From positions 240,622,001 through 240,686,000 of the forward strand of contig OZ024741.1 in the NCBI GenBank assembly GCA_964016885.1: a stretch of DNA of 64,000 bases. Reading direction: 5' to 3'. The DNA comes from Eledone cirrhosa (lineage: Eukaryota). The translations under genes were made by a program, and so were the position numbers. This document shows positions 4,949 through 63,000 of this stretch, piece after piece; position 1 is the first letter of the stretch; the number at the start of each line of letters is the position of its first letter. The notes beneath the pieces are model-generated. The model was given only the letters and a program-made list of their open reading frames with translations. It searched no databases and was not told where the DNA came from.

Positions 4949-4984
4949 TCTTTTGATGAAGGACTAGCGTCCGAAACGTTAAGA
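4949..4984 (+). ncRNA. Minimal type I hammerhead-like motif (C3U variant)
   Basis: TCTT-TTGATGA-A-GGAC(TAGC)GTCC-GAA-ACGT-T-AAGA: palindromic helix III ACGT, short helix I. Confidence 0.45.
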
Positions 4985-5229
4985 CCCTCTTCCTGCTATT
5001 TCAAGCATTAACCTAAAGATATTCCTTCCATATACTGTACCGATTCTGTTGTTATTTCTGTTTACCTTTTACACACACACACACACACATATATATATAT
5101 TGAAGGAGATAAATAGATAGAGATGATTAGTTGTAGTCTTTGGGTCATGTCCTGACATTTCATCCTGAATTTTCCAAAATATAAAAAAATAAAACATAAT
5201 TCGCTACAATAGCAGCAGACATAACAATT

Positions 5230-8200
5230 ATAACAACAACTTTCACAAAAATGACACTACCACCACCAACAACAACAACCATATCACCATCAACACCACC
5301 ACCCAACAACACCACCACCAACACCACCATAAACAACCACAACACCACCAACAACACCATAAACAACAACACCACCACCAACAACACCATAAACAACCAC
5401 AACACCACCAACAACACCATAAACAACAACACCACCAGCAACAACACCATAAACACCACCACCACCACCAACACCACCATAAACAACCACAACACCACCA
5501 ACAACAACACCATAAACAACCACAACACCACCAACAACGCCATAAACAACAACAACACCACCAACACCACCATAAACAACCACAACACCACCAACAACAC
5601 CATAAAAAACCACAACACCACAACACCACCATAAACAACCACAACACCACCAACCCCACCATAAACAACCACAACACCACCAACACCACCATAAACAACC
5701 ACAACACCACCAACAACACCACCAACAACACCATAAACAACCAAAACACCACCAACACCACCACCAACAACACCATAAACAACCACAACAGCACCAACAC
5801 CACCATAAACAACCACAACACCACCAAGAACACCACCAACAACATCATAAACAACCAAAACACCACCAACACCACCACCAACAACACCATAAACAACCAC
5901 AACACCACCAACACCACCATAAACAACCACAACACCACCAACAACACCATAAACAACCACAACACCACCATAAACAACCACAACACCACCAACACCACCA
6001 CCAACAACCACAACACCACCAACAATACCATAAACAACCACAACACCACCATAAACAACCAAAACACCACCAACAACACCACCAACAACACCATAAACAA
6101 CCACAACACCACCAACAACACCACAACACCACCATAAACAACCACAACACCACCAACAACACCACCAACAACACCATAAACAACCACAACACCACCAACA
6201 ACACCACCAACAACACCATAAACAACCACAACACCACCAACACCACCAACAACAACACCATAAACAACCACAACACCACCAACAACACCACCAACAACAC
6301 CATAAACAACCACAACACCACCAACAACACCACAACACCACCATAAACAACCACAACACCACCAACAACACCATAAACAACCACAACAACACCAACACCA
6401 CCATAAACAACCAGAACACCACCATAAACAACCAAAACACCACCAACAACACCACAACACCACCATAAACAACCACAACACCACCAACAACACCATAAAC
6501 AACCACAACAACACCAACACCACCATAAACAACCACAACACCACCATAAACAACCAAAACACCACCAACACCACCACCAACAACACCATAAACAAACACA
6601 ACACCACCAACACCACCATAAACAACCACAACAACACCAACACCACCATAAACAACCACAACACCACCAACAACACCATAAACAACCACAACACCACCAT
6701 AAACAACCACAACACCACCAACAACACCACCAACAACACCATAAACAACCACAACACCACCAACAACACCATAAACAACCACAACACCACCAACAACACC
6801 ACCAACAACACCATAAACAACCACAACACCACCAACACCACCATAAACAACCACAACACCACCAACAACACCACCAACAACACCACCAACAACACCACCA
6901 ACAACACCATAAACAACCACAACACCACCAACAACACCACCAACAACACCATAAACAACCACAACACCACCAACAACACCATAAACAACCACAACACCAC
7001 CAACACCACCATAAACAACCAAAACACCACCAACAACACCACCAACAACACCATAAACAACCACAACACCACCAACAACACAATAAACAACCACAACAAC
7101 ACCAATACCACCAACAACACCACAACACCACCATAAACAACCACAACACCACCAACAACACCATAAACAACCGCAACAACACCAACACCACCATAAACAA
7201 CCACAACACCACCATAAACAACCAAAACACCACCAACACCACCACCAACAACACCATAAACAACCACAACACCACCAACACCACCATAAACAACCACAAC
7301 AACACCAACACCACCATAAACAACCACAACACCACCATAAACAACCAAAACACCACCAACAACACCACCAACAACACCATAAACAACCACAACACCACCA
7401 ACATCACCATAAACAACCACAACACCACCAACAACACCATAAACAACCACAACACCACCAACAACACCATAAACAACCACAACACCACCAACAACACCAT
7501 AAACAACCACAACACCACCAACAACACCACCAACAACACCATAAACAACCACAACACCACCAACAACACCATAAACAACCACAACACCACCAACAACACC
7601 ACCAACAATCCCATAAACAACCACAACACCACCAACAACACCATAAACAACCACAACACCACCAACAACACCATAAACAACCACAACACCACCAACAACA
7701 GTAACATCAACAACAACATCAACACCACTACCCCAAACGACAACAAAATCAACAATAAGATCAACAACACCAACACCACCACCACCAACACCACCACCAA
7801 CAACAACAACACCACCACCAACAACAACAAGAACACCACAACCACCACCACCACCACCAACAATAACAACACCACAACCAACCACAATAACAACCACAAT
7901 CACATCAACAATAGCAACACCACCAACAACATCAACAACAACCACACCACCACCAACAACAACAACAACATCAGCAATAACAACTACAACAGCACCACCA
8001 CCACCAACAACAACATCAACAACAACCACACCACCACCAACAACATCAGCAATAACAACTACAACATCACCACCACCACCACCACCAACAACACCAACCA
8101 CAACACCAACCACAACACCAACTACAACAACAACAACAACACCAACCACAACAACAATCACAACCACAACCACAACCACAACAACAACAACAACACCACC

Positions 8201-8562
8201 ACCAACAATAAGAGATAACACCAACCCCACCAGCAATATTAACAACAACAACACCAACACCAACCACAACCACAACAACAACAACAACACCAACCACAAC
8301 CACAACAACAACAACAACACCAACCACAACCACAACAACAACACCAACCACAACAACAACACCAACACCAACCACAACAACAACACCAACACCAACCACA
8401 ACAACAACACCAACCACAACCACAACAACAACAACAACACCAACACCAACCACAACCACAACAACAACAACACCAACCACAACAACAACAACACCAACAC
8501 CAACCACAACCACAACCACAACAACACCAACACCAACCACAACCACAACAACAACAACATAA
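5230..8562. repeat. C/A-rich satellite, ~30-bp unit ACCATAAACAACCACAACACCACCAACAAC, decaying into (CAA/CCA)n
   Basis: Visible tandem units with variable numbers of trinucleotides. Confidence 0.95.
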
Positions 8563-8651
8563 CCTCATTCATTAACAAATCAAGACATTGATTTTTTTCA
8601 TTTACTCTAATTATTATTATTTTTATGTTTATATATTTAGTATTTAGGGTA

Positions 8652-9200
8652 ATGTGTGTGTGTGTGTGTTTATGTGTTTGTGGTATGTGTGTGTGTGGTA
8701 TGTGTGTGTGTGTGTGGGTTTATGTGTTTGTGGTATGTGTGTGTGTGTGTGTTTATGTGTTTGTGGTGTGTGTGTGTTTATGTGTTTGTGGTATGTGTGA
8801 GTGTTTATGTGTTTGTGGTATGTGTATGTGTGTGTGTGGGGGTTTATGGGTTTGTGGTATGTGTGTGTGGCATGTGTGTGTGTGTGTGTTTATGTGTTTG
8901 TGGTATGTGTGCGTGTGGCATGTGTGTGGGTTTATGTGTTTGTGGTATGTGTGTGTGGCATGTGTGTGTTTATGTGTTTGTCGTATGTGTGTGGGTTTAT
9001 GTGTTTGTGGTATGTGTGTGTGTGACATGTGTGTGTGTGTGTGGGTTTATGTGTTTGTGGTATGTGTGTGTGGCATGCGCGTGTGTGTGTGTGTTTATGT
9101 GTTTGTGGTATGTGTGCGTGTGGCATGTGTGTGGGTTTATGTGTTTGTGGTATGTGTGAGTGGCATGTGTGTGTTTATGTGTTTGTCGTATGTGTATGGC
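8652..9200. repeat. (GT)n-derived minisatellite GTTTATGTGTTTGTGGTAT(GT)n
   Basis: Tandem units seen directly. Confidence 0.9.
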
Positions 9201-9494
9201 ATATAATAATAATAATAATAATAATAATGAAATTATTGTGTACAGTGCTCAGGTGCACTACAACTCATCAAAGGTGCATGTATAGTACATAGAATAATGT
9301 ACAAATGTCAGGAAAATAAACAGTGTATGAGTCATGATATAATAACAATAATGTGTGTGGGTTTATGTGTTTGTGGTATGTGTGTGTGGCATGTGTGTGT
9401 GTGTTTATGTTTATGGTGTATTTGTGGTGTGCGTGTATTTCTGTGTTTGTTTATGGTGTATTTGTGGTGTATGTGTGTCTGTTTATGGTGTGTG

Positions 9495-61898: not shown

Positions 61899-62107
61899 AT
61901 ATATACGTATATATATATATATATATATATATATATATATATATATATATATATATATATATATATATATATATATATATATATATATATATATATATAT
62001 ATATATATATATATATATATATATATGTATATATATATATATATATATATATATATATATATATATATATATATATATATATATATATATATATATATAT
62101 ATATATA

Positions 62108-62301
62108 GGAACCAGTAAGACCCCGACAGCTGAGCTCAAGCCGTTTCGACGGCTAATTCTGGACTCCAGAATTAGCCGTCGAAACGGCTTGAGCTCAGCT
62201 GTCGGGGTCTTACTGGTTCCTATTACCCACTCTACTACCTCAAGTATTGAGTACTTTGGTGTGTTATGGTCCACCTGGTTCCCTACCACATTTCCTTCGT
62301 T
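62108..62301 (+). mobile_element. Hairpin-headed element, copy 3
   Basis: Near-identical to 16811-17001; perfect arms. Confidence 0.85.
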
Positions 62302-62357
62302 ATATATATATATATATATATATATATATATGTATATATATATATATATATATATAT

Positions 62358-62728
62358 AAAACCTACTACAGCCAGTAGGCATCTCTAACAAAATACCACC
62401 CCACCCCATCCACACCACCCCGTTCTATGTAAAGTTATGTTGGTGCCACACCATCCAGGCCGAAACAAATGAGATCGTGTAGGTGTCACGACAAAAAAAC
62501 ACACAGTCCACACTGTAATGTGGCCGTGTAGGCAACACGGTAAAAACCTCCCAGACCCACACTGTAAATGTGGTTGGTGTTAGGAAGGGCATCCAACTGT
62601 AGAAAACCTGCCAGACAGTCCTATGCGAGCAAGACAATCACTCTTGCCTCAAGTGGGACTACCCCCGTCCAAACCCATGCAAGCGTGGAACACGGACGTT
62701 AAACGTTGATGATGATGATGATGATGAT
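62358..62728 (+). mobile_element. RTE 3' UTR-only copy (copy D)
   Basis: Near-identical reverse complement of 14357-14745. Confidence 0.92.
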
Positions 62729-62754
62729 ATATATATATGTATATATATATATAT

Positions 62755-63000
62755 AAGTAGAAGTTGTATTTAATTTGTTGGAAATCCAACAAACATAAAT
62801 GTTTATAACTGATTTAGAGCACTCAACAGTGAATTTCCAACCGATAAGGTATGATTTTCATGGGTATGTCTCTATTTATAAAACAAACTTTGTATTTTAT
62901 CTGATGAAAACGTACCAATGTTGTCTTGGTTGCCCTTGAAATATATATAATAAAATAAATATGGTTTTATAAATATACTTTCCATTTATTTAATATCATT
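62755..63000. mobile_element. Hammerhead-bearing element with an inverted 5' piece (family of 9992-10405)
   Basis: 62755-62830 is the reverse complement homolog of 10342-10400; hammerhead at 62893-62957: TATTTTAT-CTGATGA-...-GAA-ATATATAT-A-ATAAAATA. Confidence 0.7.

Follow-up and report, generated by a model that had tools for sequence, protein, structure and literature searches.

Hammerhead motifs in a 64-kb stretch of the Eledone cirrhosa genome: truncated ends of Penelope-like elements and protein-free units with a putative U6-type promoter

The window considered here, a 64,000-nucleotide stretch of the Eledone cirrhosa genome (assembly GCA_964016885.1, contig OZ024741.1, positions 240,622,001 to 240,686,000 of the forward strand; G000:C2:240622001-240686000 in the 3.0 Gb searched), contains seven motifs with the topology of a type I hammerhead ribozyme. 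An earlier note, made from the letters alone, had read these motifs as several families of non-autonomous retroelements, and all seven are present at the positions listed below, with the helix I pairs and helix III strings that it had described. The insertions that carry them were assigned by sequence comparison either to Penelope-like elements (PLEs), in the form of pseudo-long terminal repeats (pLTRs) of families A, A2, B and C, or to the protein-free family D.

4858..5070, + strand: family C, assigned to the 3' pLTR of a 5'-truncated Neptune-like PLE, flanked by (TA)n and (CA)n.
4949-4984, + strand: minimal hammerhead of family C, with helix III ACGT and C3 replaced by U in the window copy.
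9992..10166, - strand: inverted 5'-truncated copy of family A, with a hammerhead at 10050-10114, forming half of a 350-bp palindrome.
10167..10412, + strand: direct 5'-truncated copy of family A, assigned to a Hydra-clade pLTR, with a hammerhead at 10219-10283, predicted cleavage after 10275, and a fixed 3' end followed by (TA)n.
14222..14345, + strand: family A2, assigned to the pLTR end of a second Hydra family, with a hammerhead at 14242-14312 and predicted cleavage after 14304.
56269..56559, + strand: family D copy 1, an old non-coding unit of ~356 nt, with a hammerhead at 56376-56424 (G12 replaced by A) and a decayed promoter box.
56898..57060, no strand assigned: decayed inverted and direct pair of family B (the relative at 56980), a 77% self-palindrome, 72-81% identical to 57780-57963.
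57148..57566, + strand: family D copy 2, interrupted by a short interspersed element (SINE) at 57303-57487.
57176-57187, + strand: U6-type box of the putative promoter of family D copy 2, with TATA at box+48 (~57224) and a predicted start at ~57253.
57282, + strand: hammerhead remnant of family D copy 2, consisting of a helix I strand and the first core half, at box+106.
57770..57846, - strand: inverted arm of family B (the relative at 57800), with G12 replaced by A and helix I lost at the junction.
57847..57985, + strand: direct arm of family B, assigned to the pLTR end of an old Hydra family, with a hammerhead at 57849-57898 in which helix II is broken.
62862..62995, + strand: pLTR end assigned to a relative of family A (80% identical to A), with a hammerhead at 62893-62957 and predicted cleavage after 62949.

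The type I core, CUGANGA...GAAA...UH with helices I and II, is intact in four of the seven motifs. The remaining three are decayed by a C3 to U change (4949), a G12 to A change (56376) and an unpaired helix II (57849), and in the alignments of their families the majority of the other copies keep the intact features. Since the motifs at 10050 and 10219 belong to a single insertion, lying in opposite halves of the palindrome at 9992-10341 (99% identity between its arms), the seven motifs represent six insertions. The decayed relatives pointed out previously are also real: those at 57800(-) and 56980 are family B arms, and that at 57282 is half a core of family D, split by the SINE insertion. An eighth hammerhead-like motif, overlooked in the earlier note, lies at 59709-59772 (+) and has a 7-bp helix I, a 4-bp helix II base and a 13-nt non-palindromic helix III with a C-C mismatch. 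It is located within a repeat of ~850 bp (59598-60451), found in ~25 copies with two fixed ends and decayed in the window; the adjoining sequence presumably includes a Helitron-like 5' end at about 59137.

The window motifs are not due to chance. A type I descriptor matched the window four times (cores at 10227+, 10106-, 14250+ and 62901+), as compared with means of 0.013-0.033 and a maximum of one match in 450 shuffles of the window, and a second descriptor gave no match in 60 window shuffles. In 40 evenly spaced 10-kb stretches of the genome (400 kb in total), 40 hammerhead matches were obtained against a mean of 0.17 in 12 shuffles, with one or two of the matches marginal and inverted pairs counted twice, and the proposed frequency of about one motif per 10 kb thus holds genome-wide. 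One exact pattern with an 8-nt alternating helix III was found 111,521 times against 3,795 times for its control. The ATATATAT helix III does resemble the local microsatellite, as would be expected of spurious matches in AT-rich, (TA)n-rich DNA, but the shuffle and pattern controls, together with the compensatory changes described below, refute this explanation and leave it a vanishingly small probability. An Rfam scan of the window returned no hammerhead family among the best 150 of 163 matches, and only microsatellite-driven microRNA models.

Addition of the net count for the 8-nt pattern to the count for a promoter box followed by a core, described below and covering only the box and the first core half, gives a floor of ~135,000. 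Hence, the genome would carry at least ~135,000 hammerhead-type motifs as counted and ~300,000 by extrapolation. Either figure would exceed the 120,000 hammerheads given for axolotl (PMC7229834), the largest count found in print, and the richest genomes described for PLE minimal hammerheads have 4,000-9,000 motifs (PMC4209133). Further hammerhead families were observed in the 400-kb sample (L175-L214), with helix III sequences AGAACT/AGGACT, AGTACT, ACCACTGGT and ATGATCAT, as well as one ATATATAT family with helix I CTGC/GCAG.

Helix covariation, a check put forward in the earlier note, was assessed in copies gathered by homology, and compensatory changes are present. Among 59 distinct sequences of family A helix II, AT is replaced by GC in 7 and TA by CG in 7; position 2 of helix I in the same family is AT, GT or GC, and position 3 of helix I in a further family, F, is GT, TG, AT or CG. 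These changes are from related copies and so do not represent independent events. Compensatory changes together with core conservation were seen in families A, A2 and F, with a conservation of 0.99 in the hammerhead core of family A versus 0.88 elsewhere. The catalytic core positions are the most conserved part (0.97-0.995), which argues against the suggestion that the folds persist because they serve the PLE ribonucleoprotein as protein-binding or dimerisation signals, with hardly any cleavage in vivo. Consistent with that suggestion are the ends of insertions 50-330 nt downstream of the cleavage site and not at it, the low in vitro activity of PLE hammerheads (PMC4209133) and the U at position 17 in family C, although position 17 gives no evidence either way because the descriptor excluded G there. 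Maintenance of the folds as binding signals is considered unlikely.

The predicted cleavage sites A10275, A14304 and A57892 are correctly positioned. In minimum free energy folds of monomers, the hammerhead is not formed for most motifs, as expected of dimer-type motifs, and the helix III self-duplex energy ranges from -1.7 to -10.5 kcal/mol in intact forms. The 350-bp palindrome folds with 346 of 350 bases paired and the sense hammerhead buried. Cleavage at A10275 in read-through RNA is therefore unlikely according to the folding model, because the hammerhead fully pairs with its own inverted copy.

In longer copies of families A, A2, B and C, open reading frames (ORFs) for PLE reverse transcriptase (RT) or GIY-YIG endonuclease were found upstream of the motif, a linkage that the earlier note had proposed to look for. 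As judged by these copies, five of the six listed insertions are 3' ends of 5'-truncated protein-coding PLEs. The motifs at 10050/10219, 14242, 62893 and 57849/57800/56980 are accordingly assigned to 3' pLTRs of Hydra-clade PLEs, and that at 4949 to a 3' pLTR of a Neptune-like PLE. What stands of the previous interpretation is Penelope-type type I hammerheads with a self-complementary helix III, in several families and inserted in (TA)n; the claim that these are mainly non-autonomous elements does not, though it fits family D (56376, 57282). That all window families are non-autonomous would agree with this fit, with most copies being shorter than 300 bp and with the lack of a PLE ORF in the window, which was confirmed by a tblastn search with five pieces of PLE protein that found no match there. 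The linked ORFs of A, A2, B and C run counter to it and refute it for A, A2 and C, so that as a reading of the whole window it is highly improbable.

Family A has 2104 candidates genome-wide at 97-99% identity. In 25 of 30 rows a single 3' end is followed by (TA)n, the 5' ends are variable, and an inverted copy ending ~80 nt short of the direct end is present in 15 of 29 independent loci. The complete layout, seen at locus L036, consists of an inverted copy, a pLTR, an ORF, a 1.6-kb untranslated region (UTR) and a second pLTR. The single ORF of ~745 aa includes RWR, DKT, CxCx5C, CxxC/CxH around E/N and a C-terminal endonuclease without CCHH, and so agrees with the Hydra definition given in section 11 of PMC8557442. 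These motifs were read in family A ORFs, A2 and B being assigned by tblastn similarity and the 62893 family by its 80% identity to A within the window. The further Hydra traits of a pLTR with a hammerhead, a partial tandem, an inverted 5' copy and a (TA)n target were also found. The N-terminal part of the family A ORF gave 25,810 first-look RT candidates, 34 of 129 scored Hydra matches have a stop-free frame of at least 740 aa, and 11 of 12 long-ORF copies, chosen for frame length, carry the A pLTR downstream. Pfam and Protein Data Bank sequence searches returned no significant family for the Hydra ORF; its top ESM Atlas matches (0.98-0.99) are unnamed clusters, some with members that include HTH_animal. 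Endonucleases near family A copies (P0003 type, Poseidon-like) were rejected as the parent, being mere neighbours.

Family A2 has 1723 candidates, and its Hydra ORF, 43% identical to that of family A, ends 1.3 kb upstream in locus L252; 18 of 25 copies have ATGCGCAT as helix III, and the window copy has ATGCACAT. Family B is represented by 1927 candidates at 80-88% identity, and B sequence occupies the PLE position relative to an old Hydra candidate ORF at 5 of 10 loci. The Hydra endonuclease upstream of B in locus L246 was not accepted as the B parent, since it belongs to a young family of its own, with 99% identity. At family B loci L043-L067, the inverted/direct junction falls within ~20 nt of the helix I 5' strand in ~15 of the 25 top matches, a count raised by a query that favours copies with such junctions; perhaps it marks an RT pause at the ribozyme. 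For family C (2551 first-look candidates), C3 is kept in 23 of 25 copies, and the pLTR lies downstream of a linked GIY-YIG endonuclease on the same strand in 17 of 20 loci, a count that includes the locus of the query. The endonuclease frame at L086 includes a CX2-5CxxC linker, CCHH and GIY-YIG (Pfam GIY-YIG only at E=0.15), and the Neptune-like assignment is based on these C-terminal endonuclease motifs.

Two additional PLE families were observed. One, at L037:3596-7222, has a 1209-aa open frame with a CxxC linker, GIY-YIG motifs and a long Asn-rich repeat inside, and no Pfam match. The other is a third, very young Hydra family with 403 candidates at 99-100% identity (G000:C4:265091777 and 39 more matches).

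The PLE-end part of the result is already known, including the occurrence of a Hydra family in Octopus (PMC8557442 supplement). Like A, A2 and B, the Hydra-clade PLEs described by Craig et al. 2021 (PMC8557442) have the diagnostic motifs, a pLTR hammerhead with a 3-4 bp helix III, (TA)n targets and inverted 5'-truncated copies with the tail on one end; the 3' UTR of ~1.3-1.6 kb, the helix II of 30-36 nt and the tail of ~80 nt differ here. The one Octopus family reported there, Hydra-1_Obim of Octopus bimaculoides, has a hammerhead in the supplement that differs in sequence from those found here, and is described without a pLTR and with 4 co-terminal copies, as compared with the RT candidates and long frames counted above. 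Family C matches the minimal form of PLE hammerheads (Cervera and de la Pena 2014, PMC4209133), with ACGT and an extra nucleotide before helix II. PMC4209133 likewise describes the pLTR location, the dispersal of single motifs and pairs on opposite strands at distances of 100-700 bp.

Family D is of another kind. Its 280 candidates (70-82% identity) represent a circularly permuted unit of ~356 nt with an offset of 343-363, and at locus L120 the 3' end joins the family's own 5' start directly. No PLE ORF was linked to D at any of 25 loci, nor was one found near three extended D loci, of which one held an unrelated endonuclease remnant ~7 kb away. The window's own D copies (56376, 57282) are dead relics. 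Family D shares a 13-base box containing an octamer with family F, which was met by chance beside a Hydra copy. The F unit is ~484 nt, arrays of up to 12 units were seen, and none of 25 F loci has a PLE ORF. The arrays begin with a truncated first unit, are flanked by (TA)n and may comprise several units on the inverted as well as the direct arm; most direct ends fall at unit position 437, most inverted ends at 378. The pattern of ends and the flanks are therefore a PLE signature. Family J has a ~466-nt unit, a 30-unit array and 3' ends at 433-434. Young arrays, 99-100% identical within, are found for F (12 units; L254, G000:C4:70694000-70703900) and J (30 units; G000:C1:5738350-5751969). Arrays of both families are head-to-tail and ORF-less, and thus consist, as retrozymes do, of a non-coding tandem unit with a type I hammerhead. 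Two further families, K and M, were seen in one-unit or partial copies only. Contigs of two sequencing runs of unknown kind cover the F unit except for its microsatellite and are uninformative on expression.

The box, first spotted by eye and then counted, also occurs in host genes. Positioned at -76 to -78, with a TATA close to -30, it is exact at 15 of 25 U6 loci and recurs ahead of the best U6atac match (1 mismatch) and of the only RNase MRP gene. None of 11 regions upstream of U1 has it, the best match there having 3-4 mismatches. Genome-wide, 39,144 boxes were counted against 942 for the reversed control, and the box precedes CTGANGA in 27,212 cases, as compared with 32 for a scrambled core; of the 8 boxes in the 400-kb sample, 7 have a hammerhead core downstream. 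As repeat copies inflate these counts, more weight is given to the fixed order of box, TATA and hammerhead, which is kept, in ORF-less units of 356-484 nt, by five families (D, F, J, K and M) that share little else. The box-to-TATA spacing is 48 in D, 47-48 in two U6 genes and 45 on an extended TATA in the U6 array. Runs of T do not exceed 4 in F or 5 in J, versus T7-T10 at U6 ends. BLAST of the sequences upstream of D and F against small nuclear RNA (snRNA) upstream regions gave only microsatellite or marginal matches. Tandem arrays of variant U6 (1.8-kb unit, the promoter box being replaced by a SINE in some copies) and of U1 (2.67-kb unit) were observed at G000:C19:31.78-31.84 Mb, C2:180.97-181.00 Mb and C1128.

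As judged by these comparisons, the motifs probably fall into two kinds, truncated PLE ends and protein-free units that are likely transcribed from the U6-type box, cleaved as dimers and inserted by PLE enzymes. The more specific proposal, that at least five families (>27,000 units) captured the host's external U6-type RNA polymerase III promoter and are inserted by PLE enzymes, is considered somewhat favoured by the sequence data. Several observations weigh against these proposals. The tandem unit of family D is known mainly from one locus (L120) and two weak matches, only 8 of 25 D copies keep the exact octamer, and a T6 run just after helix I in most D copies would stop polymerase III after ~80 nt. 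In F, J, K and M the box-to-TATA spacing is 42-44, below that of U6, the TATA of J is weak, and an ATG frame of 137 codons spans the microsatellite of F. Divergence in family F is nearly equal within and between arrays (4.1 and 5.3 changes per 235 nt, respectively), and therefore does not separate rolling-circle copying from growth at the DNA level. The link of family B to an ORF holds in only 5 of 10 loci, and in vitro cleavage by PLE minimal hammerheads is poor, dimers included (PMC4209133).

The shorter spacing in four families and the T6 run after the D hammerhead would also be in line with an explanation in which the PLE assignment holds, the box is a captured relic or a polymerase II octamer enhancer, the transcripts arise by read-through and the arrays grow at the DNA level. 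In its favour, polymerase II is responsible for the hammerhead RNA of the newt satellite (PMC6765202), read-through transcription has been proposed for other retrozymes, and a higher-order duplication extends across two adjacent F stretches. However, box and TATA persist in five otherwise dissimilar families, three polymerase III genes have the box but U1 lacks it, and in the arrays the first unit is truncated, the last ends at a fixed position, and either arm can hold several units. This explanation is judged improbable, and transcription from the U6-type box is preferred.

For the first kind (A, A2, the 62893 family, B and C), target-primed reverse transcription would begin from a fixed 3' end and usually stop early, and isolated pLTR hammerheads would therefore accumulate. 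Function of the motif would be confined to the parent tandem, in which the palindromic helix III of one copy could pair with that of a second, ~4 kb away on the same strand; two copies would be needed because helix III requires a dimer to be stable. For the second kind (D, and likewise F, J, K and M), RNA polymerase III would start just 5' of helix I and continue into the following unit. Retroposition ordinarily leaves an upstream promoter behind, but within a tandem this promoter would be transcribed as the tail of the preceding unit. Adjacent hammerheads would then cut out monomers, which may circularise, and PLE reverse transcriptase/endonuclease would make cDNA of more than unit length at (TA)n, with promoter and ribozyme regenerated. 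The fixed 3' ends of F and J are at or just after T4/T5 runs, and the template could therefore be either a terminated read-through RNA or a circle. As single insertions span the cleavage site uncut, the template would be uncleaved or religated RNA.

Other features of the window include abundant microsatellites, a 20-kb array of 27-bp units at 32260-52360 with higher-order repeats of ~5 kb, and a second low-complexity array at 5254-8560. Copies of 5'-truncated RTE-type long interspersed elements with a PHD-like finger after the RT domain lie at 14757-16838 (-), 13011-13580 (-) and 60995-62152 (-), and a mariner-type fragment is also present. A near-perfect 82-bp hairpin repeat at 26661-26742 has a weak microRNA-model match, and short palindromic inserts like it recur at (TA)n sites in many loci.

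The Schistosoma Sm-alpha repeat has a tRNA-like internal promoter, and newt satellite 2 has an snRNA-type polymerase II promoter with an octamer. Unlike these, the promoter here matches the external U6/U6atac/MRP type. Both known systems likewise have a promoter followed by a hammerhead and need a tandem to copy the promoter into RNA, Sm-alpha being apparently transcribed by polymerase III, and the logic proposed here therefore has precedent (PMC6765202); the portions of PMC6765202 that were available make no mention of PLE-style inverted ends for either. Metazoan non-LTR retrozymes (Cervera and de la Pena 2020, PMC7229834) resemble D, F and J in their non-coding low-GC tandem units, type I hammerhead with palindromic helix III and co-existing PLEs. 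The units of F and J (466-484 nt) slightly exceed the retrozyme range of 150-450 bp (PMC7229834; PMC7761336). In the review PMC7761336, retrozymes are seemingly without promoters, and PLEs are only likely mobilisers (also PMC7229834); in contrast, D, F and J units bear a host U6-type box and TATA, and PLE-style ends. A U6-type external promoter combined with PLE-style ends was not found in the literature searched, most subscription papers and Repbase/Dfam annotations being outside its scope. An Octopus repeat library with 893 unclassified SINE families (PMC13282606) may already contain these units unnamed.

The new part of the result would thus be a candidate class of retrozymes that bear a promoter. 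The D/F/J class makes it possible to test how metazoan retrozymes are transcribed (PMC7761336) and whether PLEs mobilise them (PMC7229834), and the young 99-100% identical arrays together with dozens of long-ORF Hydra copies provide a system for a trans-mobilisation assay, which is lacking for PLEs. Tens of thousands of U6-type boxes could bind factors needed by snRNA-type genes, and the many perfect inverted pairs would yield double-stranded RNA on read-through. If capture of the promoter is true, it would answer how animal retrozymes are transcribed and moved, with copying through tandem or circular RNA allowing the units to escape loss of the upstream promoter.

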